From contig CP060262.1 in assembly GCA_022646745.1 (NCBI GenBank), positions 3,897,188-3,961,187 on the forward strand: 64,000 bases of DNA, read 5' to 3'. Numbering within the stretch: position 1 is the stretch's first letter; every line of letters starts with the position of its first letter. Origin of the DNA: Planctomycetales bacterium. GTDB taxonomy: Bacteria > 4484-113 > JAFGCY01. Both the position numbers and the translations under genes were made by a program. Shown here piece after piece: positions 24,473-54,018 of the stretch. The notes beneath the pieces were generated by a model. That model did not search any database. It had not been told where the DNA came from and worked only from the letters and a program-made list of their open reading frames with translations.

Positions 24473-25105
24473 ATGCTCAGACGCCGACTGGCATACATCA
24501 TTCCCAGCCTGACGCTGGTCATGACCGCGATGCTGTTCATCGCATGCGGTGGTAACGGTGGACCGATCCAGCAGGAGCAACTGAATGCCGCTCCCCAGGT
24601 GGACCGCCAGCTTCCGCAGCAGGAACAGCTTGCCGATGGGGCCGGCCTGCCCTTCGCAAATGGCGATGCGGGTTCAAACCTTGTCACCCTGCGTACACCG
24701 TCACTTGCTGAACTGGGTGCCGGTGATGAATTCACGGTCCGGCTGGACGTGGACCTCCGTGAGGAAGTACACCAGGGTGTACTGCGACTGATGTTTGACA
24801 GCCAGGACATGCAGCCCGTCGAGGTTGTGCCGGGGTCCATGCTGCCCTCCGGCATGGTCCGGATTGCCGACCTCGACAAGCCGGGATTCATTCCGCTGGC
24901 CTTCACGGCCCTGCCGGGTGGCACTGACGTGGCCGCCGGCAGCGGTGAGCTGTTCAGCATTCGCTTCCGCCTGCTGAAGGCCGGCAATGAAGCCGGACGG
25001 ATTTCCTTCATCAGTGACAACGACTTCCTGCAGCTGCGAGACCGCGATGGCGAGCGCCTGCGCTTCAACCTCGGAACCGAGGCGGGAGGCAGTGATGTCA
25101 ATTAA
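24473..25105 (+). CDS. cohesin-like domain lipoprotein
   Basis: Lipoprotein signal ...MLFIACGG; beta-sandwich pattern resembling cohesin modules (GDEFTVRLDVDL...VLRLMFDSQDMQPVEVVPGSML...ELFSIRFRLLKAGNEAGRISF). Confidence 0.45.
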   Translation: MLRRRLAYIIPSLTLVMTAMLFIACGGNGGPIQQEQLNAAPQVDRQLPQQEQLADGAGLPFANGDAGSNLVTLRTPSLAELGAGDEFTVRLDVDLREEVHQGVLRLMFDSQDMQPVEVVPGSMLPSGMVRIADLDKPGFIPLAFTALPGGTDVAAGSGELFSIRFRLLKAGNEAGRISFISDNDFLQLRDRDGERLRFNLGTEAGGSDVN

Positions 25106-28100
25106 GCACATCCTCCTTCTCAGCATCCTTGCCATCCTGCTTGGCAGCAATGCCGCGCTTGCCACCTACCCGCCCCCGGAAGGCATGCTTGAGCGCATGG
25201 CGCAGGAAGGCACCCTGGCCGATGCCCAGGAGTTTGCCCGCCAGCTTGGCAACCATGAAATGAAGCGTCCAAAGCGCGGAGCGCTGGACATTGACCAGTA
25301 CAGCCCGCAGCAGGTCGCGGACCTGATTTCCGCAAACCTCGGTCGCAGCCTCGATGAGCGCACCACGAGCGAAGTCGGTAAGATGACCAGCACTGAGCTG
25401 GCCTGGGTCGAACTGGACCTGAACCACGACGGGATGGTTGATGAGCGTGACCTGCTGGTGCTCGGCCATCCGCAACCGAAACAGACAGCCACGATCCCAA
25501 GCCTCGGCTACAACAAGATGCTGACGATCCTGATCGAGTTCCCGGACTACCCGCAGTATTTCGATCCGCAGTCAATCCATGACGTCTGCTACAGCCCGAC
25601 CCCGCTGCCGAACTACCACCTTGGCAGCATGCGCTGGTTCTACGACCAGGCCAGCTATGGTGCATGCACCCTCGATGGCGACACCTTCGGCTGGTATATG
25701 GCACAGAACCCCCGCACCTACTACCATCCCGATGACAACAGCGGCGGAGGCAAGCGCGAGGAGCTGATCCTCGAGGCCTGTGACGCGGCCGATGCTGCGG
25801 GACTCGACTTCAATGACTACGATAACGATGGCGACGGTGTAGTGGACGAATTCATCGTGATCTGGACCGGCCCGCATGGCGACTGGGCAACCTTCTGGTG
25901 GGGCTACCACACCGGGATGGGCAACGGCAAGACCTACGACGGCGTGCGCCTCGGCAGCTATTCCTGGCAGTGGGAGCGCGGCTACTACTTCAACAACGAA
26001 CCCCCGACTCCCGACATCTGGAGTGCGGACGTAGTGATCCACGAGACTGGCCACGGCTTCGGCCTGCCGGACTACTACGACTATGACGGCAGTGTCGGAC
26101 CGGACGGCGGTGTTGGCTCAATGGACCGCATGGATGGTTACCGCGGTGAACATGGCTGCTTCTCCAAGTACATCCTCGGCTGGCTGCAACCGACGATCGC
26201 ATACACGAACCTCGATGACGAAGCATTGGATGTGGCGGATGCCAACCCGGACTGCGTGCTGTTCATGCCGGGCTATGACCCGGCCACGCCCTGGGACGAA
26301 TATTTCATGGCCCAGAACCGCGGGCGCGGCGGGATCGACTACCAGATGCCAACGGACGGCGTGCTGATCTGGCATGCTGATGCCCGCCTGAATGCAGGTG
26401 GTGGCTTCCTGTTCAACAACAGCTATACCGACCACAAGCTGATCCGCCTGATGGAAGCTGACGGACTCGAGGAGATCGAGAACGGCCCGAACCACAGCGG
26501 TGATGCAGGCGACTACTATGACCTCGGCGAAAGCCTCGCTCCCGGCACGACTCCCAGCAGTGACGGATACGATGCCCCGACCGGCATGGTGGTGGACGAC
26601 ATCTCGGCTGACGGCGCCACGATGACGGCGGACTTCACGCTTTACCCGACCGCCCCGCCGACGGTGACCCTCAGTGGAATCACACCGGGCAGCACGGTCA
26701 GTGGCAACGTTCCGCTGACGATCACGACGACCTCAGCTGCGGGTATAGCGGAGATCCAGCTCTGGGTGGATGGAGTACTGGTGGACGTGAAGACCGGTTC
26801 CGGCAGCTCCACTCCGCTGTGGAACACGCTGGTGGACTTCAACAAGACGATGGACGTGATGGCCCGGGCCTACGATGTGAATGGCCAGAGCGCCACTGAC
26901 ACCGTGAGCGTCACTGTCAGCAACAGCGGCGTGGTGAGCTTTGCCGACTACTTCAACATCGGCTTCAAGCTGTGGCGCAGCATCAACTTCCCGGACGTGC
27001 GCCGCGGCACCTGGACACAGTGGGAGACCCGGGCCTGCCCGGCCAGCCCGCCGCCGATCTCCGGTGGCAACGAGGCCTACGTGGCCCCGATGCTGAATGA
27101 CAATGAGTGGCACAACGCGCTGGACAACCTGCGCAGCCAGCGTGTCAACGCGGTGGACTTCGAATACCTCGTGAGCATCAGCTTCGAGTACCGCGCCCGT
27201 GACGGATTCTCCCTGTGGTACACGACTGACGAGGGGCAGAACTGGACCCTGCTTGACAACCTCACGCAGACGAACGACTGGTCCACCTACAACCGGGTGG
27301 TGGACCTGCGCGGCAGCCAGTTCTACCTGGAGTTCCGCTACAGCGGCAACGTGCGCGGTGATAACCAGAGCGGCCGTGGGGCGAACATCGACAACATCAG
27401 CGTGCATGAGGCTCCGAGTGACCCGCCGACCGTGCAGATCACGAGCCACGTTGATGGCGACCACATCAGCAACAGTACACTGTTCACGGCGGACGCGAAC
27501 GACGACTTCGGCATCGATCACGTGGATTTCTACGTGAATGGCGGACTGGCCTTCACTGACAGCGAGGCGCCGTATGAATACGAACGCAATCTGGTCAACG
27601 ATGACAACCGCCCGGACATCCCGGTCAGGGTGGTCGCCACCGACAGTGACGGCCTGACCAGTGTGCCGGACGAGGTCGCGATCAGCTGGGACACGGAGCG
27701 CCCGTTCCCACTGTTTGACGACTGTGAGATCAGCGATGACACAGGCCCGAACGCCTGGTCATTCCAGAATGGCGGAAGCTCAGTACCGAACTGGCAGTGG
27801 AGCACGGCGGACGCTTTCAGCGGCGTGCAGTCGATGGCCTGGACCGGCGACGGCAGCTTCTCCGGTGACAGTGAGGGCGTCTGGTTCTGGGGCAGCCGCG
27901 GGGTGAGCGAGGGCCGGATCTGCGTCGACCTTGCCAACCCGAAGGTCGTGGATCCGGTGCTGCGCTACAAGATGACAGGAAACTTCCCGGATGGCAGCGG
28001 CCGCGGCCTGTACCTCTACACCACATGGTATGGCTGGGAGCAGATCGGTGGCTGGGGTGACAACTGGGCTGAGTGGACCGATGTTGAGTTCGACCTGTCA

Positions 28101-28493
28101 GGCCGCATCGGCCACAGTGGCCGCATCGTCTGGTGGGTGTTCGGCTCCAGTGGCGACGCAGCCGGCATCTGGCTTGATGATGTTGAGGTCACGAATGCCA
28201 CTCCGGTGATTGACAGCATCAGCCCAGGCATCGCGATTGACGGCGAGATCATCACCCTGAGCGGACTGGGCTTCAGCAGCTGCGACATCTCGAAGCAGCT
28301 CAACTTCACCGAGGGAACCGTGCTGATGCCGCTGGACGTCGTGAGCTGGACCGATGAGGAGATCCAGTTCGCCGTACCTGCCGGGGCGCGCGGTGGCAAC
28401 CTGAGCGTGACCGTCAACGGCCGCCAGAGCAATGAGGTGAGCCTTGTTGTCAGGCTGGCCAGCCCGCAGCTGACGGAGATCGGCGGACTGTAA
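25095..28493 (+). CDS. secreted M6-family (immune inhibitor A-like) zinc metalloprotease with dockerin-like repeat and C-terminal Ig/IPT-like domains
   Basis: Signal peptide MSIKHILLLSILAILLGSNAALA; zincin motif VVIHETGHGFGLPDYYDYDG; dockerin-like LDLNHDGMVDERDLLVL; ATG 25095 with GGGAGG upstream (track ORF 24987 is an extension). Confidence 0.8.
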   Translation: MSIKHILLLSILAILLGSNAALATYPPPEGMLERMAQEGTLADAQEFARQLGNHEMKRPKRGALDIDQYSPQQVADLISANLGRSLDERTTSEVGKMTSTELAWVELDLNHDGMVDERDLLVLGHPQPKQTATIPSLGYNKMLTILIEFPDYPQYFDPQSIHDVCYSPTPLPNYHLGSMRWFYDQASYGACTLDGDTFGWYMAQNPRTYYHPDDNSGGGKREELILEACDAADAAGLDFNDYDNDGDGVVDEFIVIWTGPHGDWATFWWGYHTGMGNGKTYDGVRLGSYSWQWERGYYFNNEPPTPDIWSADVVIHETGHGFGLPDYYDYDGSVGPDGGVGSMDRMDGYRGEHGCFSKYILGWLQPTIAYTNLDDEALDVADANPDCVLFMPGYDPATPWDEYFMAQNRGRGGIDYQMPTDGVLIWHADARLNAGGGFLFNNSYTDHKLIRLMEADGLEEIENGPNHSGDAGDYYDLGESLAPGTTPSSDGYDAPTGMVVDDISADGATMTADFTLYPTAPPTVTLSGITPGSTVSGNVPLTITTTSAAGIAEIQLWVDGVLVDVKTGSGSSTPLWNTLVDFNKTMDVMARAYDVNGQSATDTVSVTVSNSGVVSFADYFNIGFKLWRSINFPDVRRGTWTQWETRACPASPPPISGGNEAYVAPMLNDNEWHNALDNLRSQRVNAVDFEYLVSISFEYRARDGFSLWYTTDEGQNWTLLDNLTQTNDWSTYNRVVDLRGSQFYLEFRYSGNVRGDNQSGRGANIDNISVHEAPSDPPTVQITSHVDGDHISNSTLFTADANDDFGIDHVDFYVNGGLAFTDSEAPYEYERNLVNDDNRPDIPVRVVATDSDGLTSVPDEVAISWDTERPFPLFDDCEISDDTGPNAWSFQNGGSSVPNWQWSTADAFSGVQSMAWTGDGSFSGDSEGVWFWGSRGVSEGRICVDLANPKVVDPVLRYKMTGNFPDGSGRGLYLYTTWYGWEQIGGWGDNWAEWTDVEFDLSGRIGHSGRIVWWVFGSSGDAAGIWLDDVEVTNATPVIDSISPGIAIDGEIITLSGLGFSSCDISKQLNFTEGTVLMPLDVVSWTDEEIQFAVPAGARGGNLSVTVNGRQSNEVSLVVRLASPQLTEIGGL

Positions 28494-28503: not shown

Positions 28504-29688
28504 TCAGGCGCCCTGGCTTGTGATCGGCAGTCCTACACGCCACAGCGTGACCGGCAGGTTGGTCTGCACACTGAGGTCGACGAGCCAGCACTGGCGGTCG
28601 TGCGCCGGGATTATACGCATGCCTGTCTGCAAGCCCTGGTACAGCCAGAGCCGGTTGCCTGCGGAGTCATAACAGAACAGCAGTCCGGTGACGGGGGTTG
28701 CCACCATTGATGTTGCATTTGGAGATCCGGCAGTGGGATCCGGATACTCCGCCGGGAAACCGCTTACGAATGTCTCACCGTTGAGGCCAGCCACGATGTC
28801 ACGCACGACGAGATCATCCGGCCACCGGAGTGCAAGCGACTGCCCATCAGCATCGAGGCCCTGCAAGCCATCGCCGATCCGCAGCCACAGGTTGCCTCCG
28901 CTGCTGCGCAATTCCCTGATCTCTGCTCCTGGCAATGCATTCCAAAGCACTTCGCCGGATGGATCCGCGCACTCCACACCGCCGTCAATTGCGGGATAGG
29001 CAATCCTCCCCGCATCCAGCAGGCCGGCATGGTGGCTGGCACTGTACTTCTTCCAGCGCAGTTCACCCTCCAAGTCCAGGCAGTACAGGAACCCGTCGTC
29101 ACTTGCCGCATAGGCATTGCCATCATCCAGCAGCAGGCGGGCCGGCGCTCCCATCAGGAAATTCCATTGCTCCTGCCCTTCGTAACTGAAACAGGTCACG
29201 GACTGTTCAAGGATCGTCGTCAACAGCACATCATCCAGCAATATACATGTGTCGGCAGCGGGATACTGCGAACCGGGCCAGAATGGCTCCGGTGTCCAGA
29301 GTTCACCGCTGCGGGCGAAGCCGGTATCCGGGACATCGTTGCGCCAGACCTCGAGGTAGCCGTCTCGCCGGGTTGTTGCCAGCCAGCCGTCCGGTCCCAG
29401 CAGCAGTTCACGGTCGGCCAGCACCTCCTGGTCGGGCAGCATCATCGGCCGGCTGCCGTAGTAGTTCCAGCCACCCAGTGAGGCATCGTCCTCAATCAGT
29501 CCATCGTTGAAGTTCATCATCACTCGCAGCCGGTTGCCGGCCTGCAGCTGGTAATGGCCGCCGGGGTAATCGCCACTGGCCAGCTCCATCGCCTTTGGCA
29601 CGCGGCTCTTGCCAGCCTGCCCGCTGCAGCCTGTAAGCAGGCTGATTGAAATGAGAACTGCGAACGAAAAACTTGCCAGCCGGCTCAT
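28504..29688 (-). CDS. PQQ-like (BamB-type) beta-propeller repeat lipoprotein, paralog 1 of 8
   Basis: Lipobox LLTGC; repeated G.LY.LD..G.L.W blade motifs (FLYCLDLEGELRW); ATG overlaps upstream stop (ATGA); GGGAGG RBS. Confidence 0.75.
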   Translation of the reverse strand: MSRLASFSFAVLISISLLTGCSGQAGKSRVPKAMELASGDYPGGHYQLQAGNRLRVMMNFNDGLIEDDASLGGWNYYGSRPMMLPDQEVLADRELLLGPDGWLATTRRDGYLEVWRNDVPDTGFARSGELWTPEPFWPGSQYPAADTCILLDDVLLTTILEQSVTCFSYEGQEQWNFLMGAPARLLLDDGNAYAASDDGFLYCLDLEGELRWKKYSASHHAGLLDAGRIAYPAIDGGVECADPSGEVLWNALPGAEIRELRSSGGNLWLRIGDGLQGLDADGQSLALRWPDDLVVRDIVAGLNGETFVSGFPAEYPDPTAGSPNATSMVATPVTGLLFCYDSAGNRLWLYQGLQTGMRIIPAHDRQCWLVDLSVQTNLPVTLWRVGLPITSQGA

Positions 29689-30911
29689 CGCGCACCTCCC
29701 AGCCTGCAGATGCGGTCAGGCCCGTCATCGCTGACAAGCAGCAGCTTGTCCTCGCCAAAACCGTAGATGCGGTCGCAGTGCAGTTCCAGCCAGACCGGCA
29801 CATTGACCGGCACGCTGAGGGCCGCGGTTTCAAGCTGCAACTGCAGAGTCCCCGCGCTGGATGAAGATACGTAAGCGAACTCGAAGTCCGGCAACTCGCC
29901 ACGCATCATCCCGCTGAGCATGCCTGGCAGGCCTGCCAGCAGCGGATACTGCGCGCGGCCGGCATACATCAGCAGCTGGTCATCCTGGATCGCCGTGCCA
30001 TCCAGCAGGTACAGCTCGCTCAGTTCAGTGCTGCGTGTCTCGGTCCCATCCACGCTGTAGCGTGCATACTTGCCATCCCGGAAGCGGGCGATGCCATCCT
30101 CTGTCAGCCAGCAGTACCTGCTTGGTCCGGCGCTGTAACTGCTGAGCTGGCCCAGCTGACTGGCAACAAGCTTCCCGTCCAGCCTGCTGAGGCTGGTGCT
30201 CCTGCCCCGCTCCAGCACCATGCCACTTTCGGCCAGCTCAATCCCGGAGACATCCCAGATGTTGCCACCTCCGACCAGCTCCATCTGCCCGTCCCGACTG
30301 ACCCGCACACGTCCGCCATTGGAGACAGTCTGCAGGTTTCCCTCACTGTCCACCTCCATCCAGGGCCGGCTGGCCAGAATAGATGTCGCATTGGGTATCC
30401 TGCGGACCCAGAGCTTCTTGCCATTGGCATCAAGCCCGTAAACCAGGGCGGTTGCCATAGTGAAGAATGTCGCCTGCGCTTCGTTGCCTCGACGCACGCG
30501 AGTATGCATTTCATTGTGTACAGGCTCGTAACGCCAGGATTCCGATCCCTCTGCATCGATTGCGATAGCCCTGCCATAGCGACCGGTCAGCACCATCAGG
30601 CCATCCCCTGCCTGCACGCTGCTGAGTGTGAAATGGGCCGGTGCCGCGAATTGCCAGTCCAGCCTGCCTTCCGTGCTGATCCGCGTTATTCGGCCGGAAC
30701 GCTCCTGCAGTACCAGGCCGCCCAGTCCATCGTCAATCGGTTCAAGCAGCAGCTCGCCGAAATCCGGATCGCCAAGTGTATGCAGGCTCAGCAGTTCATT
30801 CGGACTGAACAGGCGGGATGCAAGCATCATCAGCATGCCGGCCAACCAGCAAAGCAGCAGCGCGGCACTCACCATCACGGCCCTGCGTTGCCAGCGCTGC
30901 ATTGTATCCAT
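29685..30911 (-). CDS. PQQ-like beta-propeller repeat protein with N-terminal membrane anchor, paralog 2 of 8
   Basis: N-terminal TM (VMVSAALLLCWLAGMLMMLA); blade motif ALVYGLDANGKKLW. Confidence 0.75.
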   Translation of the reverse strand: MDTMQRWQRRAVMVSAALLLCWLAGMLMMLASRLFSPNELLSLHTLGDPDFGELLLEPIDDGLGGLVLQERSGRITRISTEGRLDWQFAAPAHFTLSSVQAGDGLMVLTGRYGRAIAIDAEGSESWRYEPVHNEMHTRVRRGNEAQATFFTMATALVYGLDANGKKLWVRRIPNATSILASRPWMEVDSEGNLQTVSNGGRVRVSRDGQMELVGGGNIWDVSGIELAESGMVLERGRSTSLSRLDGKLVASQLGQLSSYSAGPSRYCWLTEDGIARFRDGKYARYSVDGTETRSTELSELYLLDGTAIQDDQLLMYAGRAQYPLLAGLPGMLSGMMRGELPDFEFAYVSSSSAGTLQLQLETAALSVPVNVPVWLELHCDRIYGFGEDKLLLVSDDGPDRICRLGGAR

Positions 30912-30984
30912 GACCTGATTCTAGCTCAGCGGGGCACTGTCCCTGAGCTTTCCCTCCCATTACATGACTGGATCACCAACAGTG

Positions 30985-32124
30985 TTACTCGGGTGCGGAA
31001 AGCAGGACGAGGCCCTGCTTATCCTGCGTTGCGGTAAACAAGGTGCCATTGCTTCCGGTATGGGCAAAATAGGGGTAACCTTCCATCTTTTCACCGCGCC
31101 AGAGTACCTTTCCCTGTGGATTGATGCACAGCCAGTGGAAGGGAGTATTCACACGGTTTGCTATCCGGCCCCCAAACCAGCTGTTGCGGAAATCCCTGTC
31201 ATAGATCCTCAAAAAGGTGTATCCATCCCTGGAAAGCTCCAAACTGGACCAGCCAATTGATTCCAGCCTGCAGCGCCAGAGCCGCTTTCCATCCGCATCG
31301 TAGCAATCAACCCCCCAGCTCCGCTGGATCGCAAATCGATTTCCGGCATCATCGACTTTTGCATACACGTGGCCCAGCTTCTCACCGGAGTGATCCTGGA
31401 TCCAGAGTTCCGTTCCTTCCCAATCCAGGCATACGAGGTTCAGTGAATCAGATCCCGTGACAAGTATCCTGTCACCGAAGGCCTGAGCCTGCTGCACACC
31501 CTTGCGGGTCCAGCTGACCCGCCCCTGGCTGTCCAGGCAGGCAAGCTCCCCGTCCCGCCCGAACACCAGCAGGTGCTGGTAGTCCTGCGACTGGCTGAAG
31601 CTGATCATGTATCCGCCCATGTATTCCCAGCTGGGATTGCCCTGCTGGTCAAATCCGACAATCTGCTGCTGGTCATACATCACGAACGGATCCGTTCCGA
31701 GGAAGCCCATGCTGCCATCCTGGCCGGAGTACCTGACAAAGTTGCCAGAACTTCCATCAGATGCGGTATCCGGCCGACTCAGCAATACTGAGTCATTGCC
31801 ACGGTCGCTGAAAACGAGCCGCACCCCGCCACTGGGCCCGTTGTCGGGGAAGAGGTACTGTCCGTCCGGCCCCGCTACCATCTCGGTCAGCTGGCTCGAA
31901 TAGACCGGGTAGCCCTGTTGCGATGCCTGGCTGGCGGTTGGCTTGTCACCTGCCTCCTTCTCCGCATCGATGCTGAGCATGCCGCTGCCCTGCCAGTTGA
32001 GCACAGTATTGTCATCTGAAACAAGCATCGGCCCGAGCACATTCAGTTCACGCTCCATGGCAACAGGAACCCTGCCGCAGGATACCAGTAGCAGCAATGC
32101 CATCAACAGGACAGCGCTATACAT
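30985..32124 (-). CDS. PQQ-like beta-propeller repeat lipoprotein, paralog 3 of 8
   Basis: Lipobox LLLVSC; blade motif LLVFGRDGELACLDSQGRVSW. Confidence 0.75.
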   Translation of the reverse strand: MYSAVLLMALLLLVSCGRVPVAMERELNVLGPMLVSDDNTVLNWQGSGMLSIDAEKEAGDKPTASQASQQGYPVYSSQLTEMVAGPDGQYLFPDNGPSGGVRLVFSDRGNDSVLLSRPDTASDGSSGNFVRYSGQDGSMGFLGTDPFVMYDQQQIVGFDQQGNPSWEYMGGYMISFSQSQDYQHLLVFGRDGELACLDSQGRVSWTRKGVQQAQAFGDRILVTGSDSLNLVCLDWEGTELWIQDHSGEKLGHVYAKVDDAGNRFAIQRSWGVDCYDADGKRLWRCRLESIGWSSLELSRDGYTFLRIYDRDFRNSWFGGRIANRVNTPFHWLCINPQGKVLWRGEKMEGYPYFAHTGSNGTLFTATQDKQGLVLLSAPE

Positions 32125-33412
32125 CGGCAGCCTCCAGCGCCAGGCACCTGAGCTGCTTGTCGTTGCTGATCAGGTAGATCCGGTCCTTGCTGCAGTGCAT
32201 CGCCGAGAAGCCGTTGAAGTTCTGCCCGCTGCCGATATCCAGTGCAGCCAGCCTCTCCCCTTCGCGGATCACTTCCAAGCGGAACACCTGGGACTGCTGC
32301 AGCCTCGGATTCAGCTGGCCGGCAGCCGGCGAAGCGAAAGGCAGGGCTGCAGAGACCATGGGAAACAAGGCGGACAGGTGTTCCAGTGCGGTCAGCAGGT
32401 TGTCAGTCCTGCCCGTCACCAGTGCGAATGCATCCCCCAGGTCCTGGGCATCCGAAACACTGCCGGCTTCAAGTGGAATGCTCCATTGCTCCTCAAGCTG
32501 GTAGTCCAGCGCACGCACCACGGCATCACTGGTCGGCACGAGGATCAGCCCGGCTGAACTGGCAACCTGGTTGGGACTGATGTAGAAACCGGGCGATGTA
32601 CCCAGCTGATTGATCTTCTTGTGGATCTGCTCCCCGTCCCTGACCAGGCAGAGCTGGTTGCCACCGGAGTACAGCAGTTCGCCGTTGCCGACAACTCCAC
32701 GCAGGTCCAGTATCTCCCCGCTGAAGTAGATCTGCTGTCCACCGGCCGTCTTCGCGGGAGTTTTCGGCTTGCTGGGACGTTCGAGCGGAATGCGCTCGCC
32801 ACTAATTGTGTAAATGCTCACGCTGGAGAAATCGTTGCACAGGAAGCTGTAGCTGCCGGCGTACTCGAAATAGCTTGGCAGCCCAAACGGGTCATACATC
32901 TGCCTGGTATTGACAACCCAGCATGGCTCGCCGGCCGCGCTGATTCCGTAGAGCAGGATGCCCTGCTTGAGGAAGGCGACCGCCTGGCTGCCTTCCCGTG
33001 GCTCAAGCAATTCACGGTACCGCTGCGGATCGGGCCGGCAGTTCCACAGTTCCTGTCCCTGTGCATCGAGGGCAAGCAGCTCACCCTTGCCTGTGGTCAG
33101 GTAGGTGATGGCATCTACCCGCTGGATCGGTGAGCGGATACTGTCAATCGTGTGCTCCCGGCTCCATAACACCCTGCCATCGGGAGTGATCATCTGGAGC
33201 TGTCCGGCCAGCATGTCCTGGGTGTAGACAAGGCAGCCATCTTCGGATGCATCCACTACGGCACACCATGTCGCATCAAGCTGCCTGCTCCAGAGCTGCG
33301 TGAGCCCACTGTCCCTGCCGATTGCCAGCCTGAGCGTAATCCAGCCAGCCGCCCACAGCACGGCGTAAACTGCAATTGCCAGCACCATTTTCCGGTGGAT
33401 CCTGCTTGCCAT
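32117..33412 (-). CDS. PQQ-like beta-propeller repeat protein with N-terminal membrane anchor, paralog 4 of 8
   Basis: N-terminal TM (MVLAIAVYAVLWAAGWITL); blade motif LLALDAQGQELW; 8-nt overlap with next gene. Confidence 0.75.
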   Translation of the reverse strand: MASRIHRKMVLAIAVYAVLWAAGWITLRLAIGRDSGLTQLWSRQLDATWCAVVDASEDGCLVYTQDMLAGQLQMITPDGRVLWSREHTIDSIRSPIQRVDAITYLTTGKGELLALDAQGQELWNCRPDPQRYRELLEPREGSQAVAFLKQGILLYGISAAGEPCWVVNTRQMYDPFGLPSYFEYAGSYSFLCNDFSSVSIYTISGERIPLERPSKPKTPAKTAGGQQIYFSGEILDLRGVVGNGELLYSGGNQLCLVRDGEQIHKKINQLGTSPGFYISPNQVASSAGLILVPTSDAVVRALDYQLEEQWSIPLEAGSVSDAQDLGDAFALVTGRTDNLLTALEHLSALFPMVSAALPFASPAAGQLNPRLQQSQVFRLEVIREGERLAALDIGSGQNFNGFSAMHCSKDRIYLISNDKQLRCLALEAADV

Positions 33413-33510
33413 GTTTCCCTGCCAGTCCCTGCAAAGATGCCCGTTCAGTTATTGCTCCGGGCAAACAATGGTTCAATTGTAAATCAGGACGCTGCCGGAC
33501 CGTCCCGGGT

Positions 33511-34692
33511 TCAGAAGCCACGCCACATGGAACCCGGCGGGCCATGGAAGGTGAGTACGCTGTTGTTCCCCACCTCGAACTGGCCGATCAGACCACCGGA
33601 GAAGGTCAGGGCTCCGTGGCTGCGCACCATCTCCCCATCGGCGGCCTGCCAGATGACCTGCCCGTCGGGATCCACACAGAACCCAAGCTCAGAGATGCGG
33701 AACGGGAACATCCCTTCGCGCTCGACAGAGCCGTTGTAGGCTTGCTGGTAACGGACAAAGGCAAACATATGACCGTCCGGCGCACCAACGAAGTAGGAGA
33801 AGCCGGTGTCGCCAACCGGCAGTTCGGTACGCCACAGCTCCTCACCTGCCGTGCTGATGCATAGTGCGGTCCTGCGATAATCGTGAGCAAAAATCCGTCC
33901 ATTGGACACGGCGGTCGGCAGGCAGGTAATGTCCATCTCGAGCTCCCATAGCAGCTTGCCATCGCTGTCCAGGGCTCGAAGCCTGCCGTCAGTGCTGTAA
34001 CCGTAGAAGCTGCTGCCATCCGTCACGCAGCTCTGCATTTCGGGATTGCTCCAGAGCAATTCTCCGTTCCCGTCCAGCGCAAGGATCATCCCGTAGAAGC
34101 AGCTGATATACAGCCTTTCCCCATTCGTACTCGATTGGAGTTGGGCATTGCTCCCTACATTGAATTCCCAAAGCGGATTGCCCTGCAGGTCGAATGCTCC
34201 GAGCATCTGTGCGTCATCGTCGGCAATCACCACCATCCCGTCCAGGAACGCCGCCTCATTGCCAAACTGGCAGTCAAAGGAACGGCCATAGGTTGACAGC
34301 GTAAGTTCGGTTTCCAGCGGCACCATCACGGACGGGTCCGCCCGCGACACAAGCAGGGGCCGGGAGTATGAATCAGTGATGGCCAACCAGTCGTCATTCC
34401 AGCCGCGGATCTCGAGTCGACCGGGATTGAATGTCATTTCCGAGCCATCCGGCCAGACGGCATCCATGCCTGTACCCTGTGCAATCAGCTGCTCCGGTTC
34501 ACCGGGCACCATGCGATAAAGGCTGAAAGTCGGCATGTCCAGTGAAAGGATGCTGCCATCCTCCAGCTCGGCATAGTAGTAACCGGAGAGGGAGTAACTG
34601 CGCGTGTCTGATGCCGGCAGCACTTCAGGCTGGGCTTGCAACATAGCTGATGGGATGGCAACAAGCAGCAGTGCGATGACGAGCGCTTTCAT
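33511..34692 (-). CDS. PQQ-like beta-propeller repeat exported protein, paralog 5 of 8
   Basis: Signal peptide MKALVIALLLVAIPSAMLQA; blade motifs AFDLQGNPLW, ILALDGNGELLW, LRALDSDGKLLW, VDPDGQVIW. Confidence 0.8.
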   Translation of the reverse strand: MKALVIALLLVAIPSAMLQAQPEVLPASDTRSYSLSGYYYAELEDGSILSLDMPTFSLYRMVPGEPEQLIAQGTGMDAVWPDGSEMTFNPGRLEIRGWNDDWLAITDSYSRPLLVSRADPSVMVPLETELTLSTYGRSFDCQFGNEAAFLDGMVVIADDDAQMLGAFDLQGNPLWEFNVGSNAQLQSSTNGERLYISCFYGMILALDGNGELLWSNPEMQSCVTDGSSFYGYSTDGRLRALDSDGKLLWELEMDITCLPTAVSNGRIFAHDYRRTALCISTAGEELWRTELPVGDTGFSYFVGAPDGHMFAFVRYQQAYNGSVEREGMFPFRISELGFCVDPDGQVIWQAADGEMVRSHGALTFSGGLIGQFEVGNNSVLTFHGPPGSMWRGF

Positions 34693-35888
34693 AGTCCCGC
34701 CTCCAGACCATATACCCAGACGCCTTGCCTCGCATGCCAGACCACTATGCCTCCTCCCGCAATCGCTGACATGTGATAGTCCTCGGAAAGTACGGGGCCA
34801 AACAGCGACTGCTGCCAGGCGATCCGATCGTCTGAAACCTCAAGCATGATGATGTCACTTACGAATGCTGATCCATCCTTGCCCGCAGGTAGCTCCTCGG
34901 CGGCAGGCAGGCCCACGAGAGCAGTCCCGGCTGCCTGGCCATCCGCCAGTGGCGTGCTGCCCAGCAGCAGCACGCGAGTCCCGGACTGCACCACATCAAG
35001 CACCTGCCCTGGCAGGTCCAGCGCGTCACTGTGAACCACCAGGCTGTCGTCAAGCAGGCCAAACACCCTGCCCCAGCGCCTGCCTCCCCAGCCAATGTTG
35101 CCAGTTCCGAACTGGAAGTCCTTGAATCCGCCGCTGTCAAGCGACTCCGTGCGCATGCTCGACTCCAGCGAGAAGCTGAGCTGTTGGTCCAGCAGCTGCA
35201 TACGGCCATCATCGCCATACACCAGCATCCGTCCGTCCGGCAGCACCGCCGCATGGTCCCCCCAGCGGGTGCCTTCCGGGCCGTTGATACTGTGCTTGAT
35301 GCCTTGGCTGTCCAGCCAAAGGAGCTCCCGGTCCGGCGTACGATACATCCACAGCAGGTCCAGCGGCAGCTGCTGCGGGTCAAATGGATCCAGCCAGGTG
35401 TCGTAGAGTTCTCCGTTGTCAGACATCCAGCACAAGCCGCCGCTGCTGTCCAGTCCGTAATCGAAGCGCCCGTCGGAGGTCCGCACTACTGCAGGCGCTG
35501 CGTCCGTCCCCGGCAGGTGCTCCAGTGCTTTCCACGGTTCGGGATGGAATTCCCAGGCCGGCTGCCCTTGCCTGTCCACTGCCCAAGCCTGGCCACCCAT
35601 GCCGGTGAATATCGTGAACCCGGGAAACTCGTAGCAGCGCCAGGCAATGTTCCAGCGCAGCCAGTCCGCATGCCAGATGTGCTGTCCCGTGGCATCATAG
35701 TGGGAGATGCCAAGGTTGACATCCTTGACATACAGGCCGCCCTTGTTGCCAACGACCACGGATGATTCGCCTGCTGCCGCTGGCAGGCTCCACTTCAGCT
35801 GCAGCGGATCATCCTGCGCCATCGCCACCCCGCCAGCCAGCAGGCATGCCAGCAAGGCCATAAGTCCCGTCACCCTTGTTCGTGTCAT
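34689..35888 (-). CDS. PQQ-like beta-propeller repeat exported protein, paralog 6 of 8
   Basis: Signal peptide ...LLACLLAGGVAMA; blade motif AWAVDRQGQPAW; stop overlaps next start (ATGA). Confidence 0.75.
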   Translation of the reverse strand: MTRTRVTGLMALLACLLAGGVAMAQDDPLQLKWSLPAAAGESSVVVGNKGGLYVKDVNLGISHYDATGQHIWHADWLRWNIAWRCYEFPGFTIFTGMGGQAWAVDRQGQPAWEFHPEPWKALEHLPGTDAAPAVVRTSDGRFDYGLDSSGGLCWMSDNGELYDTWLDPFDPQQLPLDLLWMYRTPDRELLWLDSQGIKHSINGPEGTRWGDHAAVLPDGRMLVYGDDGRMQLLDQQLSFSLESSMRTESLDSGGFKDFQFGTGNIGWGGRRWGRVFGLLDDSLVVHSDALDLPGQVLDVVQSGTRVLLLGSTPLADGQAAGTALVGLPAAEELPAGKDGSAFVSDIIMLEVSDDRIAWQQSLFGPVLSEDYHMSAIAGGGIVVWHARQGVWVYGLEAGL

Positions 35889-35941
35889 GGATGGATTGTA
35901 AGGCAGGGACGCTTACTATGCACAATCGCTGTTCTACCGGC

Positions 35942-37105
35942 TTATTGTTGGCTTCCTGATGAATCGACCGGATCGAGGCAGACCAAGGTTTCCGGCTTGC
36001 GCTCATAGACGTACAACCGGCCATCATAACCAGGCAGGTAGTTGCCATTGTGAGAAGCAGTCTTAGTCGAACTCCAGAGGAACCTGCCCTGTGGATCAAT
36101 GCAGCTCCACCGACTATCCCTGACGGTACTACCTGTTGTGAATCTCGATAAAAACATGCTGCGTCCAATACTCCAGTCAATTCGCCAGATAAAGACATAT
36201 CCATCCGGACTGATGTAATACGGCGAAGTGAACTCGTCGCCCATGTCATACACCCATTGTTCCTTGCCTTCCCGGTCATAGGCATGCAGGAACTGGCCAC
36301 TGCCGACAACGCACAGCGGGCTGCGTGGCTCCGTCAGCAGGCGTGGGAATTCCATGTCCAGAAGTGGAACCTGCCACTGCTCTTTGCCATCCCAATCAAG
36401 GCACAGCAGGTTTCCCTTATCGTCCAGCGTAACCAGCCTGTCACCCATGGACAGGGTGGAGAAGCAGCCCATGCGCTTCCAGAGCAGCTCTCCCTGCGGG
36501 CTGAGGCAATGCAACGAGCCGGACTGGCAACCAAGAGCAATTCGCTTGTCGTCATCTGCCCTTAGCAGGTAGCTGCCTGCGTCGCCGTTGAAGCGCCAGG
36601 CAGGCTGCAGCGCAGAGTCATATGCCTGCACGAACTGGCTGTTGTAGAGGATGACCGGATTGCCATCTAGGGAGCATGCGTCAAAGCGGTCACTCATGTT
36701 TACTCGCGGGGGCCAGCCGGATCCTTCCGGAATGCCGAGTTCGACATATTCATTGCCAGCATTGCCATCCAGCACCCAGGTCCGTCCGTCAGCGGCGACG
36801 ATGTAGCGTCCCTCACCGATCGGGACGAGCTGGTTGAGGCCCTGGCTCCTGAGGGCATCCGGCAGCAAAGGACTTCCGGATCCAGCGGAGCTGGCCTGCC
36901 CCAGGTCTACGCCGGAAAACTCACCAGCTGCTGAAACCTCTGCCATTCCCCTGCCGTGGTAAAGCCGCAGGCTGTTGTCAGGCAGCACTTCCATGCTGCC
37001 ATACAACCTGGTCTCATATGTGTGCTGTACGTTCTCCTCTTCCGCACGGGACATATCGCAGGCGGACAGGATCATTGCGCAAAGCAGCAGGGCGATGATC
37101 CTCAC
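35942..37105 (-). CDS. PQQ-like beta-propeller repeat lipoprotein, paralog 7 of 8
   Basis: Probable GTG start at 37105 (GGAG upstream, GTGA overlap with upstream stop) giving lipoprotein signal MRIIALLLCAMILSAC; blade motifs LHCLSPQGELLW, LLCLDWDGKEQW. Track ORF extends to 37138 (TTG). Confidence 0.7.
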   Translation of the reverse strand: MRIIALLLCAMILSACDMSRAEEENVQHTYETRLYGSMEVLPDNSLRLYHGRGMAEVSAAGEFSGVDLGQASSAGSGSPLLPDALRSQGLNQLVPIGEGRYIVAADGRTWVLDGNAGNEYVELGIPEGSGWPPRVNMSDRFDACSLDGNPVILYNSQFVQAYDSALQPAWRFNGDAGSYLLRADDDKRIALGCQSGSLHCLSPQGELLWKRMGCFSTLSMGDRLVTLDDKGNLLCLDWDGKEQWQVPLLDMEFPRLLTEPRSPLCVVGSGQFLHAYDREGKEQWVYDMGDEFTSPYYISPDGYVFIWRIDWSIGRSMFLSRFTTGSTVRDSRWSCIDPQGRFLWSSTKTASHNGNYLPGYDGRLYVYERKPETLVCLDPVDSSGSQQ

Positions 37106-38376
37106 TGGCCTGCTCCAATCACATAGCAGTCCAGCCAATCTCCATTGCTTATGTACACCCGGGAGCCGCTGACTGCCAGGCGAAACCTCACATTCCCGAT
37201 GTACGGGATGCTGATGCTGCCAAGTATCCGCTCATCACTGACGAGCTGTAACCTGCGGTCCGTGTTATAGCCGTAGAACCCCTGGCTTTTGAGGTACTGT
37301 GTCTTGCCGGGGAACAGGAAGCTGTCCAGTGGCTTGATGCTGTCACCGAGTTTGCGCAGGCTGCGAGCAATGTTGTCAGCATCCTGGGTCATCAATACGA
37401 AGCCGGCGTCACAGGGCTTCACTTCGTCAATCCGGCTGCTGATCGGTGCATGCTCCGCAATCTGCCGGCCCTGCAGGTCAAGGATTGCCAGGCTGGAATC
37501 ATTGAACAGCACGAGCAGGCGATTGCCGCCACAGAATGACTTATCAATCCTGACAGCGGTGGAGGGAATTGGAACCGTGAAGATCTGTGCGTCCTTGCCA
37601 TCCATTAGCTGGAAGCGATCCTCACATCGCAGCAGGGGCACCTCTCCTTCAGTCAGTCCAACCAGCTGGACCAGCTCAGGAGCTGGTGCCAGTGAAGCAT
37701 GCTCAACCGGCTTTGGCTCACTGAGCAATTCAGTGGACGGAACGGAGACGCTGCCATCCGGCCAGGCAGTTGTCATGTTGGCCCAGTTGATCACATAAGC
37801 CGCCTGCCCGTTGATTGTCATCCGGGAGTGCAGGTGCTCGATCCACGGGTCTGCTCCAGGGTTGACCGTCCAGCACAATTCTCCATCAGTCCTCAGGCCG
37901 TACAGCATGGAGCCATTCTGGCTGTATAACTCGGCAGTTGGCGCAGTTGCCAGTTTCAGTGGGTCGCTGAATTCGCGGGACTGCTCATCGTATGACCACT
38001 GCCTGTTCCCGGCTGCATCCACTGCATACATCCGGCCGTCAGTCAGGCTGATGTAGCAGTTGCCATCCTGCTCATGGACGCAGTCCTTCAAGTAGACTCC
38101 TGACTCGCGAAACGTCCAACGGACCTCTCCACTCTGTGGGTCGATCGAGATTACGCCTGCACTTATTCCACGGTTGTCCAGCAGGTACAGCCCGCCCTCA
38201 TTTCCAGCCTGCAGATTCATGTACTCGTAAGCCAAGGGGATCCGCCAGGCGTGTGTGAATGGGGATTGCTCGCGTCGGCCCTGCCCCAGGTACAGCGCTC
38301 CCGCCAGCCACAGCAGCAGGCAGGCCAGCATCGTGCCGGCAATCAGCCTGTGCTCGCGGGATGTCGCTTGCTGCAT
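37102..38376 (-). CDS. PQQ-like beta-propeller repeat protein with N-terminal membrane anchor, paralog 8 of 8
   Basis: Start set at ATG 38376 (track extension to 38472 overlaps upstream gene); TM LIAGTMLACLLLWLAGALYL; blade motifs MYAVDAAGNRQW, LYGLRTDGELCW. Confidence 0.7.
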   Translation of the reverse strand: MQQATSREHRLIAGTMLACLLLWLAGALYLGQGRREQSPFTHAWRIPLAYEYMNLQAGNEGGLYLLDNRGISAGVISIDPQSGEVRWTFRESGVYLKDCVHEQDGNCYISLTDGRMYAVDAAGNRQWSYDEQSREFSDPLKLATAPTAELYSQNGSMLYGLRTDGELCWTVNPGADPWIEHLHSRMTINGQAAYVINWANMTTAWPDGSVSVPSTELLSEPKPVEHASLAPAPELVQLVGLTEGEVPLLRCEDRFQLMDGKDAQIFTVPIPSTAVRIDKSFCGGNRLLVLFNDSSLAILDLQGRQIAEHAPISSRIDEVKPCDAGFVLMTQDADNIARSLRKLGDSIKPLDSFLFPGKTQYLKSQGFYGYNTDRRLQLVSDERILGSISIPYIGNVRFRLAVSGSRVYISNGDWLDCYVIGAGQ

Positions 38377-38399
38377 CTGCTGCAAGCATAGCGCAGAAG

Positions 38400-38795
38400 C
38401 TAGTGTTCCTCCCAGACGATCAGCGCCGCATCCGCCAGGTCGTTGTCTGGCATTCCGAACAAGCGCCGCCACATCTGCTTGAACTCGGCCTCGTCATGCG
38501 GCCACTGTTCCAGCCACTCCCTGAATTGCGGCCACTGGAACAGCGTCGGGATGTCCCCCACCCCGCGGCAGTAGTCGTGGATCATCTCCCAGCAGATCGG
38601 CACCACCGTGCCCGGCTTCTGTGCCGTGCTGCCGCGCATGAAATTCACCAGCACGCCGCGCTCGGGCTTGTCCTCGCCGCGCACCATCGCCACCCCGGTG
38701 CCCCGGTCCACGGCGTAGTAATGCGGCTCGATGTATACGATCTGCACGGCTAGGATGATAGCCGAGGGCGGCTGCTGGGAACCTCTGGCTTGCAC
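38400..38795 (-). CDS. hypothetical Trp-rich small protein, first gene of the minus-strand propeller operon
   Basis: 131-aa ORF (GTG start) ending 21 nt before paralog 8; no recognised domain. Confidence 0.4.
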   Translation of the reverse strand: MQARGSQQPPSAIILAVQIVYIEPHYYAVDRGTGVAMVRGEDKPERGVLVNFMRGSTAQKPGTVVPICWEMIHDYCRGVGDIPTLFQWPQFREWLEQWPHDEAEFKQMWRRLFGMPDNDLADAALIVWEEH

Positions 38796-38863: not shown

Positions 38864-40042
38864 ATGGATGGATTGCAGGAGCAGGCCGGTATCCGGCGAA
38901 AGGGCCTGACAATTCTGCCGGCCTGGCTGCAGGACAACCCCCTGCCCGCAATCTGGCAGCTGACCCTGCTGAAGCGCAGGCGCAAGCGCCCGATCTTCCA
39001 GTTCTACTCCGCCGCTGTGCTGTTCTTCCAGGTGCTGGCGCTGCTCTGTGTCCCGGCCTACCTGATTGACTGGTACACCAATGCCTACTTCCTCACCGAG
39101 CTGCTGATGGCGGAATCGCTTCTCTCATTCTTCTGGCTGCTGCTGGAATTCACGTCATGCCTGAACTTCGCCGGCAACCTGATGCGCAGCGAGACTTCCT
39201 CCACCTTCCCGATCATCGACGAGGCGCTGGCGGCCAGCAGCCTGCAGGACCGGGACTTCATCCTGGCAATGCTGCAGGCCAGCCTGCCGCGCCTGATGAT
39301 TCCATCCGCGCTGCTCTGTCTCGCGGTGGTGATGCTATTCCAGACTGACTTCCTGCTGTATTCATACGGGTACAACGGGCTTGGCATAGCACAGTGGCTT
39401 TCACTGACAACATTGTCAATGGTTTCGATGTCCGGCCTGCTGCTGCTGCACTTCGGCCTCGGGATGCAGCAGGAGAAACGCTTCGCCGCCAGCACCGGGA
39501 CAGTGATGGCCGGACTGGCCCAGCTGCTGACAATCGCCAGTTGGTTCCTGACCTACGACGAGGAGTGGATGACAGATTTCAGCAGCTACTGGCGCTACCA
39601 GTATTTCAACCCGCACCTGCTGGATCTCCAGAATTACTACTGCAATTCGCAGCTTGGGATGCTGCTGATCCAGTTCATGCTGGTGCTGCTGCTGCTGCAC
39701 CTGGCAACGCACAACGGATGGCTGCGCCGCCTGCTGCTGCTGGGCTGGCCGGCGCTCTGCGGCATCCTACTGACAACCTTCCTCCTCAGTCTGCAGTACA
39801 TCGATCCAGAGAATTTCTCCTACCTGACCGGACTAAGGTTCATCAGCCGCGCAGGCCAGCCGCTGTCCTTCGTCAACCTGGATGTGATATACATGCATTT
39901 TGTCGGTAACGACACCTCCGTGCAATCTGCCCATGTCGGCAGGCTGCAGGCATTGACGGTGCTGCTGCAGTTCGCATACGCGTTCACTTTCCTGCAGTTC
40001 GCCAGGAGAATGCTGTCCATCCATCGAAGGGGGACAGCATGA
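38864..40042 (+). CDS. polytopic membrane protein, family A paralog 1 (conserved N-terminal NPLP..W..L...R motif)
   Basis: ATG 38864 with AGGAGG upstream; N-terminal DNPLPAIWQLTLLKRRRKR followed by multiple hydrophobic helices. Confidence 0.7.
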   Translation: MDGLQEQAGIRRKGLTILPAWLQDNPLPAIWQLTLLKRRRKRPIFQFYSAAVLFFQVLALLCVPAYLIDWYTNAYFLTELLMAESLLSFFWLLLEFTSCLNFAGNLMRSETSSTFPIIDEALAASSLQDRDFILAMLQASLPRLMIPSALLCLAVVMLFQTDFLLYSYGYNGLGIAQWLSLTTLSMVSMSGLLLLHFGLGMQQEKRFAASTGTVMAGLAQLLTIASWFLTYDEEWMTDFSSYWRYQYFNPHLLDLQNYYCNSQLGMLLIQFMLVLLLLHLATHNGWLRRLLLLGWPALCGILLTTFLLSLQYIDPENFSYLTGLRFISRAGQPLSFVNLDVIYMHFVGNDTSVQSAHVGRLQALTVLLQFAYAFTFLQFARRMLSIHRRGTA

Positions 40043-41280
40043 TCAACAGGCTCATTGCTCATATCATGCGTATCACCCGCGGCTGGGTCACTGCCCTGCT
40101 GGATATCCGCCGCAATCCGTTGCCCGCGGCCTGGGGCATGTCCGAATCACGCGGCAATGCGGCCTACCTCAAGCGCTTCGCGATCGGGATGGGCCTGTAC
40201 GGCATTGCCAGCTGGCTTGGGATCATCGCGAGCGCTAGTTACCTGACCGGTGACCAGCTGGCCAACAACAAACAGAGCTTCGTGAACAACTACTTCTTCG
40301 AGCTGGAGGACCTTGGCAACTGGCTGCTGCAGCAGCCCGGCGCTGCCTGGTGCCTGCTGCTGGCCCTGGCCTGGCTGCTTGTAACTTTCCGCAAGGCAAT
40401 CACCACTTCGCTGGGCTTCCTCGACAGCGAACCACGCCAGCAGACGCATATCACCTATGACGACATGCTGGCCTGTTCGCAACTCAACGAGTACGAGGTG
40501 CTGCTCGGTGCGCTTTACTACTGTGTCCGCCTCGTGTTCCTGCCCCTGCTGGCATTCTCAATCTGTTGTGCCTATTCCACATACAGCTTCTTCGAGGCTG
40601 AGATTGCCGGCAATTTCAACGGCGGACTCGCCGGCCTGCTGGCGCACATGTTCGCTGCAGTGCCACTGCTGTTCACCTCCGGCATGCTGGCGGCAATCGC
40701 ATTGTTCCTGCTGACAATCAGCCTGAGCCTGAGCTCCCGCCAGCGTACCGCTCCGCAGGTCGGCGGCTTCCTGCACACCACGGTGCAGTTCCTGCTGATC
40801 GTGCTGGCAGCCTACCTGCTCTACTCGCAGTTCCAGTACTGGGGCTTCACGAATGACGCAGTGTTCCGCGATTTCGGCAACGTGATGTTCAGCATCAGCT
40901 TCCTGGTGACAACCCTGATGCTCTACCTCGCCCGGCGGCTGAACTGGCTGCGCATGCTGCTGCAGCAGGGCTTCCCGGTGCTGCTTGGAGCCTTCCACCT
41001 GTTCTGTGCACTGCCGCTGGCCTATGCCTATACACTGGACAGCGACTGGCTGAACATGCTCAGCATTGCGGCTGACGGCCTGCGTCCACTGAGCCTGTCA
41101 GCCACGGCGCTACAGGCCAGCTGGCTGCAGCAGATCCAACATCCCTACTGGGCGCGGGGCGACCGCGGCTTTGAGTACTACGCGATCGTCTCGCAGCTGA
41201 TCGTGCAGTTGGCCTACCTCGCCCTGTTCGCTGAGTTTGCCCGTGACGCAGTGCGCCGTCGCAAGTGGGGCGTGATGTGA
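40039..41280 (+). CDS. polytopic membrane protein, family A paralog 2
   Basis: ATGA overlap with previous gene; N-terminal RRNPLPAAWGM...; multiple TM helices. Confidence 0.7.
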   Translation: MINRLIAHIMRITRGWVTALLDIRRNPLPAAWGMSESRGNAAYLKRFAIGMGLYGIASWLGIIASASYLTGDQLANNKQSFVNNYFFELEDLGNWLLQQPGAAWCLLLALAWLLVTFRKAITTSLGFLDSEPRQQTHITYDDMLACSQLNEYEVLLGALYYCVRLVFLPLLAFSICCAYSTYSFFEAEIAGNFNGGLAGLLAHMFAAVPLLFTSGMLAAIALFLLTISLSLSSRQRTAPQVGGFLHTTVQFLLIVLAAYLLYSQFQYWGFTNDAVFRDFGNVMFSISFLVTTLMLYLARRLNWLRMLLQQGFPVLLGAFHLFCALPLAYAYTLDSDWLNMLSIAADGLRPLSLSATALQASWLQQIQHPYWARGDRGFEYYAIVSQLIVQLAYLALFAEFARDAVRRRKWGVM

Positions 41281-43913: not shown

Positions 43914-43934
43914 CATGCTCGTCTGTGGGCGGGA

Positions 43935-49384: not shown

Positions 49385-49476
49385 ACCAGCGCTTCTCCCG
49401 GGATTGTGGCGGGAACCACTGCTCCGGGTTAGAATCAAACGGCTGAAATCTGTTTCGATACTTGGGGGTATCGGAT

Positions 49477-53625: not shown

Positions 53626-54018
53626 AAAGGTACTTGAAATTTGATTAATGTGTACGTATACTGTTTCCATAGCTTCGGCTGCGCTCTGGGAGCCAGCTGG
53701 AAGACACGCGCAATTGAGGAAGTAGGAATTGCTTGATCAGCATTCGAACTTTCGGATCACAGGGGCTGCTGTGAACCTCGCAGTCCTTTGCGCGCATATT
53801 TACTACCCCGGCACCGCATGCAATTGCCGTGCTGCGACACATGCTTCCCAGTACTCCGGCCGTCCTGGACCGGTCGAGATAATCCGGCTGAAACATACTG
53901 CATGAGGAGGTATCTGATGTCCAGTCGTGGCAGCAGTGTTGCCACTCGAAACCCTGCCTACCGGGCGGGTCAATTGCGCTTATTAATTATTTCCATACCA
54001 ACATCTATAGGAGTTATC

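Follow-up and report, generated by a model that had tools for sequence, protein, structure and literature searches.

PQQ (pyrroloquinoline quinone)-like propellers are, to our knowledge, very common in the cell envelope, and almost all of them are without known function. BamB and, recently, Rv3035 belong to the few for which a role has been defined, and both serve as scaffolds together with partner proteins. Here we describe an operon with eight PQQ-like propeller genes (G8 to G1 in the order of transcription) at positions 28504–38376, minus strand, of a 64,000-nucleotide stretch of DNA, hereafter called the window, from a genome deposited as Planctomycetales bacterium (assembly GCA_022646745.1, contig CP060262.1).

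BamB (also called YfgL; PDB 8adg_B and 4hdj_A), a lipoprotein subunit of the β-barrel assembly machinery (BAM), shares the eight-bladed propeller fold with the two window proteins that were modelled. BamB is, nonetheless, the product of a single gene in the yfgM-bamB-der context, whereas the window has eight genes of two kinds, A and B, lying between a small orphan gene (S0) and the gene of an M6 peptidase. Also, a lipobox is present only in G1, G3, and G7, and the B-type proteins are membrane-anchored or of the signal-peptidase-I type. A further difference is that the window propellers are restricted to a single lineage and vary from strain to strain. By analogy, the best precedent for the B–A pairs proposed in this study would be Rv3035–FecB of Mycobacterium, in which a periplasmic eight-bladed propeller is joined to a lipoprotein in a stable heterodimer and assists a polytopic membrane enzyme (PDB 9p3f; PMC13041763). 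The fold of a modelled window propeller is close to that of Rv3035, but the sequence identity is only 16%, and Rv3035 is a single essential gene in contrast to the variable tandem array in the window. FecB is not known to be a propeller; the lipoprotein partner in the window would differ from it in being a second propeller.

Other described propellers of this kind, namely YxaL of Bacillus and the archaeal cell-surface protein 3hxj (PQQ_2/PQQ_3), are encoded by solitary genes with neither an anchored partner nor a modular array. Generic metagenomic PQQ_2 propellers (P0008–P0028) have the blade repeats in common with the A-type proteins (E 1e-19 to 1e-4 against the A-type profile). The three generic contexts that we inspected all contained single genes, and the generic match P0014 was found in the classical TPR_21-PQQ_2-GTPase (i.e., yfgM-bamB-der) context. 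A search of the literature for arrays of BamB-like paralogs gave nothing relevant. While the proteins themselves are of a known kind, PQQ-like/BamB-like envelope propellers, we did not find, either in the papers examined or in the three contexts inspected, a precedent for the paired module of an anchored and a lipidated propeller, its tandem multiplication with at least six types, or its cassette-like swaps.

Two alternating subfamilies of propellers

A preliminary description of the window, made from the sequence alone, had proposed eight consecutive minus-strand genes of about 380–430 amino acids (aa), and this is borne out by the listing of open reading frames (ORFs). The raw listing gives eight ORFs of 379–456 aa from 28504 to 38472, which become 379–431 aa once the starts are fixed by reading the DNA. 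The start of G8 is the ATG at 38376, where it had been placed before, and G7 starts with the GTG at 37105 rather than the TTG at 37138, resulting in the lipoprotein N-terminus MRIIALLLCAMILSAC. The same description had treated the eight genes as equivalent paralogs, and this view needs to be revised: all-vs-all BLASTP separates the proteins into two groups with alternating positions in the operon, and a ninth gene, S0, is present upstream. The locus is a nine-gene minus-strand operon, in which S0 is followed by four two-gene modules in the order of B–A, B–A, B–A, and B–A. The A group comprises G1, G3, G5, and G7, which are mostly lipoproteins, and the B group comprises G2, G4, G6, and G8, which are mostly signal-anchored. 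Within the A group, G3 and G7 match over their full length at 1.4e-27, followed by G5–G7 (5e-15), G3–G5 (1e-12), and G1–G7 (6e-5); within the B group, the full-length match of G4 and G8 (1.5e-13) is followed by G6–G8 (6e-11), G4–G6 (1e-10), G2–G4 (7e-10), and G2–G8 (6e-9). Matches between A and B proteins are far weaker, and the two profiles are remotely homologous (hhalign probability of 96%, E 2.6e-9 over 126 columns).

S0 (38400..38747, 115 aa), the first gene of the operon, encodes a cytoplasmic orphan protein with no signal peptide and ends 23 nucleotides (nt) upstream of G8. It has no match in Pfam, NCBIfam, or PADLOC, and only 7 of 1.84 billion representative proteins were matched, none of which is an informative relative. 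Module 1 consists of G8 (B; 37102..38376, 424 aa), a signal-anchored PQQ-like propeller with one transmembrane (TM) segment at residues 11–29 and 30% identity to its orthologue in the locus L007, and the lipoprotein propeller G7 (A; 35942..37105, 387 aa). In module 2, both G6 (B; 34689..35888, 399 aa) and G5 (A; 33511..34692, 393 aa) carry a cleavable Sec signal peptide. Module 3 is composed of the signal-anchored propeller G4 (B; 32117..33412, 431 aa) and the lipoprotein G3 (A; 30985..32124, 379 aa), and module 4, the core module, of the signal-anchored G2 (B; 29685..30911, 408 aa) and the lipoprotein G1 (A; 28504..29688, 394 aa).

The stop of B and the start of A overlap in all four modules, by 4 nt (ATGA or GTGA) at G8/G7, G6/G5, and G2/G1 and by 8 nt at G4/G3; the overlap is GTGA at G8/G7, where G7 starts with GTG, and ATGA at G6/G5 and G2/G1. 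A GGAGG-like sequence is located 7–9 nt upstream of all four A starts, and these junctions fit translational coupling of B and A. Co-translation had been proposed from overlaps at several junctions; it is the four junctions within modules that overlap, and the genes of successive modules are separated by gaps of 53, 98, and 73 nt. Consensus scans of the operon revealed no internal terminators or promoters above chance, and an Rfam scan of the window for regulatory RNAs and riboswitches gave no match at the gathering score. As a side observation, two of the B genes, G6 and G2, are without a Shine-Dalgarno sequence (regions 35889–35941 and 30912–30984) and have TTACAAT and TAGAAT, respectively, 6 nt before the ATG. 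These sites, which were not flagged by the consensus promoter scan, are possibly module-level promoters that lead to leaderless transcripts.

Each of the eight proteins has one hydrophobic segment, which is always N-terminal, and an export signal was assigned by eye: a lipobox in G1 (LLTGC), G3 (LLVSC), and G7 (ILSAC), a cleavable AxA-type signal peptide in G5 (MLQA/QP) and G6 (VAMA/QD), and an uncleaved signal anchor in G2, G4, and G8. The blade motif [hydrophobic]x[DNST]..G...W occurs 4–7 times in each A-type protein and 1–3 times in each B-type protein. These counts exceed the 0.6–1.5 motifs obtained with composition shuffles, and clearly so in the A-type proteins. The export signals and the repeated PQQ-type blade motifs noticed at first reading are, in this respect, well founded. 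In the lipoproteins G7, G3, and G1, the blade motif usually starts with Cys (C[LIY]D..G...W; four blades each), and typical PQQ_2 repeats have Ala at that position; in the non-lipidated A-type protein G5, Ala is found in three of the five motifs.

The Pfam model PQQ_2 (PF13360; gathering score of 27.6 bits) is reached by G4 (32.5 bits), G5 (47.2 bits), G7 (40.0 bits), and G8 (32.2 bits), and G1 (26.6 bits) is 1 bit below the gathering score. For G2 and G3, no PQQ_2 match was reported and weak matches to another propeller model, Beta-prop_ACSF4, were found, and G6 has no Pfam match at all; these three are tied to the other propellers by BLASTP (1e-10 to 1e-27) and by the profile–profile match. 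When the A-group profile was compared with PDB sequences, the archaeal PQQ-like 3hxj and designs derived from it came first, followed by YxaL (1e-19) and BamB (1e-15). One member of each subfamily was also modelled with AlphaFold2 as an eight-bladed propeller. G7 (A; alignment of 12 sequences) gave an all-β model with eight four-stranded blades, for which the predicted local distance difference test (pLDDT) was 79.7 and the predicted template modelling score (pTM) was 0.78, and G4 (B; 7 sequences; pLDDT 67, pTM 0.67) gave a TM helix at residues 3–32 followed by a propeller. The proposal that the eight proteins are exported PQQ/BamB-like propellers is supported. In the alignments, the few invariant residues are the structural Gly and Trp of the blades. 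Conservation is uneven, being highest in the anchor and residues ~60–180 of B and in residues ~150–240 of A, which is compatible with, but no proof of, one conserved and one variable face.

The expectation that the locus is not one housekeeping BamB is also justified. Against the BamB equivalog model TIGR03300 (cutoff 285.2 bits), seven of the eight proteins score 14.7–27.8 bits and G6 has no match; together with the gene context, which is unlike yfgM-bamB-der, these scores rule out housekeeping BamB. Of the window ORFs that we examined, none was recognised as a BamA gene. A quinoprotein dehydrogenase was likewise rejected as unlikely, because the scores for Pfam PQQ (PF01011; 10.2–14.7 bits against a cutoff of 26.7) and TIGR03075 (13.9 against 480 bits) are far under the cutoffs.

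Distribution and turnover of the modules

By using S0 as the anchor for locating the locus in public genomes, we know the locus from seven public places including the window, all in uncultured bacteria, and six of the seven are long enough to read. The relatives are the genome bins HKST-UBA01 and HKST-UBA03 (both labelled “UBP7”), the genome bin AC1.30, a bin of the European Nucleotide Archive (ENA) named Bacteria_4484_113, and a contig of the Joint Genome Institute (JGI); a metagenome scan with S0 added one 1.9-kb contig, in which the array is not readable. The family has very few members: in a search of 5.8 billion clustered proteins, three true relatives were retrieved with the A profile before a fall in score from 337 to 86 bits, where generic PQQ_2 proteins set in, and four true relatives were retrieved with the B profile. 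Regarding the hosts, a 2024 review names bioreactors and activated sludge as the sources of the GTDB phylum 4484-113 (Ca. Niteriota) and gives its G+C content as 44–64%, which fits the window (~60% G+C); the UBP7 genomes of the same review, of 0.8–1.4 Mb and 36–53% G+C, fit the window poorly. The labels in the databases conflict: the NCBI isolate names of JAGRNR01 and JAGRNT01 say “UBP7,” but the ENA bin says 4484_113. The phylum of the locus carriers is one that we infer.

All six readable loci have a common frame composed of divergent membrane-protein genes (read in five), S0, the modules (B–A)n, and a convergent M6 peptidase gene. The number of modules is four in the window and HKST-UBA01, three in HKST-UBA03 and AC1.30, and two in the 4484_113 bin and the JGI contig, with at least six module types overall. 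The last module (G2–G1 type) is present in all six loci; its proteins are 95% identical in HKST-UBA01 and 37–49% (G2) or 41–50% (G1) identical in the four more distant genomes. At the other end, modules of four unrelated types occupy the slot adjoining S0 in the six genomes. Orthologous propellers of the four more distant genomes are 28–50% identical, as compared with 73–85% for the peptidase and 83–95% for S0 (83–100% among all relatives).

When the 18 modules of the six genomes were compared, the A–A and B–B similarity matrices were highly correlated (Mantel r = 0.98, with none of 2000 permutations as high), and the best A match and the best B match fell in the same module type for 17 of the 18 modules. 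The single exception is the unique first module of HKST-UBA01, for which the scores are negligible. Therefore, B and A have duplicated and diverged as a unit. The expansion at one locus that the preliminary description had proposed is real, but its unit is the two-gene B–A module instead of the single gene. The array contains no long DNA repeats, just short echoes of the blade motif, and the duplications are accordingly old; paralogs are at most 30% identical, and recent tandem duplication is ruled out on both grounds. An old expansion is also what the sequences of the module types suggest, given their identity of at most 30% and the orthologues of four of the six types in other genomes.

HKST-UBA01, a strain of about 90–93% DNA identity to the window (88–93% across the flanks of the locus), shows the turnover of modules in a sliding comparison along the DNA. 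S0 and the region for the G8 anchor (38800–38350) are 98–100% identical, but the body of G8 and G7 (~38300–35900), bordered by DNA of 97–100% identity, are unalignable with only 27–44% identity. Identity returns to 94–99% in G6 (35870–34520), drops to 64–79% in G5 (34520–33470), and is mostly 91–100% in the remainder from G4 to the peptidase. The first 31 residues of the first-module B proteins are identical between the window and HKST-UBA01, and the sequences then diverge, the break being located just after the shared TM anchor. Contigs with either allele of the first module occur in assemblies of neighbouring ENA accession numbers. As to G5, the synonymous divergence (dS, Nei–Gojobori) is 0.98 with 78% amino-acid identity, as against a dS of 0.06–0.15 for its neighbours, which points to an imported diverged allele rather than local mutation. 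The ratio of nonsynonymous to synonymous divergence (dN/dS) between the window and HKST-UBA01 is 0.15–0.36 for the propellers, higher than for the peptidase (0.05) and S0 (0).

Genes on both sides of the array

Convergent to the array is the gene of a secreted M6 (InhA-like) metallopeptidase (25095..28493, plus strand), identified by matches to Peptidase_M6 and Big_7 domains. In each of the six readable loci, it lies beside the last module (73–85% identity in the more distant ones), and it is part of the conserved synteny. Its start is overlapped by 11 nt by the gene of a 210-aa lipoprotein (24473–25105, plus strand) with a sub-threshold Cohesin match (22.4 against 24.1 bits), and the array is followed by this pair in those relatives whose flank on this side could be read. 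By eye, and from a weak EF-hand match, a stretch resembling an EF-hand or dockerin was recognised in the peptidase. The cohesin-like lipoprotein and the peptidase may constitute a surface-tethered protease. Farther away (1283–5950, plus strand), a 1555-aa lipoprotein has at least eight PKD domains, the only domain reported by Pfam, and a dockerin-like pair of calcium-binding repeats was recognised by eye near residues 215–275 (DYDQNGLITISDL ... DGDGNNVINISDI).

On the other side, a divergent array of seven paralogous orphan genes, M1–M7, extends over 38864–49384 (plus strand). Polytopic proteins, with 5–10 predicted TM segments, are encoded by M1, M2, M4, M7, and the N-terminal half of M3. A single TM pass and a large soluble domain characterise M5, M6, and the C-terminal half of M3, so that M3 has the appearance of an M4-like protein fused to an M5-like one. 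Several of the M proteins have an N-terminal motif, NPL(P/L)xxWxL, in common. None of M1–M7 has a match in Pfam, NCBIfam, or PADLOC, and M4 and M5 also have none among PDB sequences. An anti-phage defence system was considered and set aside, as PADLOC matched none of S0, G8, G7, and M1–M7. Synteny of the M array is maintained in the five loci with a readable array, and the numbers of M genes and modules are 4 and 2 in the JGI contig, 5 and 3 in AC1.30, 6 and 3 in HKST-UBA03, 7 and 4 in the window, and at least 7 and 4 in HKST-UBA01. This parallel increase is suggestive of a functional link, but the five genomes are not independent. In HKST-UBA01 (L011 4099–7085), two extra genes for an M4-like protein of ~447–459 aa and an M5-like protein of 481 aa are inserted between M2 and M3, at a site (~41251–41292) where the window is without them; the M array, too, is therefore modular and differs from one close strain to another. 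Beyond the M array, Big1 (49462–53574, plus strand, 1370 aa) and Big2 (53788–59040, plus strand, 1750 aa) are paralogs (37% identity over 1435 aa); their N-termini resemble those of lipoproteins, and neither has a match in Pfam. Beyond the M array of the JGI contig, a gene of 1362 aa may be a counterpart.

Possible roles of the paired propellers

How could these modules work? We consider the chances about even that they are paired, non-catalytic binding or scaffold units of the envelope with polymorphic specificity. An N-terminal anchor would keep the B protein, a PQQ-like propeller of eight blades, on the outer side of the cytoplasmic membrane, and the A protein would be another eight-bladed PQQ-like propeller, lipid-anchored or, in module 2, secreted. 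Each B would pair one-to-one with its cognate A in the extracytoplasmic space; such pairing has indirect support from the gene order, the coupled junctions, and the co-inheritance of B with A. As regards the hetero-oligomeric assembly that the preliminary description had considered possible, the data point to B–A pairs rather than one eight-member complex. As with BamB or Rv3035–FecB, the pairs might serve as non-catalytic platforms for binding or scaffolding. Each module type would then recognise a different partner or ligand, and the repertoire would turn over because at least one face meets a variable external pressure or substrate.

Several points weigh against such pairs. A high Mantel correlation is expected from a shared duplication history alone, and the exchange of G5 without G6 means that the partners are not strictly locked together. 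With dN/dS below one, positive selection is not demonstrated, and relaxed constraint alone could account for the faster evolution of the propellers. Confidence in the B-type model is, furthermore, only moderate (pLDDT 67), and the B-type paralogs align poorly with each other in their C-terminal half.

Alternatively, the propellers might act independently of each other as polymorphic surface receptors or adhesins for environmental polymers, cells, or particles, with a repertoire shaped by phages, predators, or substrates, somewhat like the tandem substrate-binding gene pairs that diversify in polysaccharide-utilisation loci. We regard this as possible but on the doubtful side. Receptors would be in line with the first slot, where unrelated modules of four types are found among the six genomes and where close strains differ by a replacement, and with both first-module alleles being present in assemblies of neighbouring accession numbers. 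A neighbourhood rich in surface proteins (the M6 peptidase, the cohesin-like lipoprotein, the giant lipoproteins, and the PKD-repeat protein) would suit them as well, and G1 touches a λ-carrageenase propeller model at threshold; this match, however, spans 24 residues, corresponding to one blade motif. Independent action also leaves the strict alternation of A and B and the coupled junctions unexplained, and a dN/dS below one does not speak for receptors.

It is rather improbable, in our view, that the propellers are accessory factors of an envelope biogenesis machine, either as BamB-like helpers of BAM or as helpers of the polytopic M1–M7 proteins, with one client or membrane enzyme for each module. 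The synteny of the M array in five readable loci and its gene count rising with the module count would be understandable in that case, but the correlation comes from five non-independent genomes, and the M proteins match no known family, so that nothing marks them as enzymes. The low TIGR03300 scores (15–28 bits against 285), the context unlike yfgM-bamB-der, and the B-type proteins not being lipoproteins are further difficulties, and replacement by an unalignable allele from one close strain to the next would be unexpected for a housekeeping factor. An enzymatic role, i.e., PQQ-dependent dehydrogenases or propeller hydrolases/lyases such as tetrathionate hydrolase with paralogs covering different substrates, is very unlikely. 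Blade motifs of the PQQ type are indeed present, and Rv3035 was noted by its authors to resemble enzymatic homologues (PMC13041763). The scores for PF01011 (10–15 against 26.7 bits) and TIGR03075 (13.9 against 480 bits) nonetheless argue against enzymes, as do the lengths of 379–431 aa in comparison with ~550–600 aa for quinoprotein dehydrogenases (560 and 601 in PDB chains), and the few invariant residues are the structural Gly and Trp of the blades. Also, neither pqq biosynthesis genes nor cytochrome partners were seen among the window ORFs of at least 250 aa.

The reading of the modules as paired, non-catalytic binding or scaffold units can be extended to a polymorphic modular system of envelope recognition that is peculiar to this candidate phylum. 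Membrane-anchored hetero-propeller B–A pairs would each have their own ligand, and co-existing strains would trade modules as cassettes, notably the one adjoining S0, under pressure from phages, predators, or kin recognition, the whole working together with the similarly modular M1–M7 array. This extended proposal is, we think, unlikely in its entirety.

If the function turns out to be that of an ordinary scaffold, the locus would be a modest addition to the BamB-like family. It nevertheless marks a block of lineage-specific envelope genes (S0, M1–M7, and Big1/Big2) in a candidate phylum without a cultured member. The locus is also a natural dissection of such proteins: propellers of the anchored and the lipidated kind have stayed together in coupled pairs, one conserved frame accommodates at least six types of module, and the clean replacement of one module between close strains makes the specificity for partner and ligand testable by comparing cognate and non-cognate combinations.

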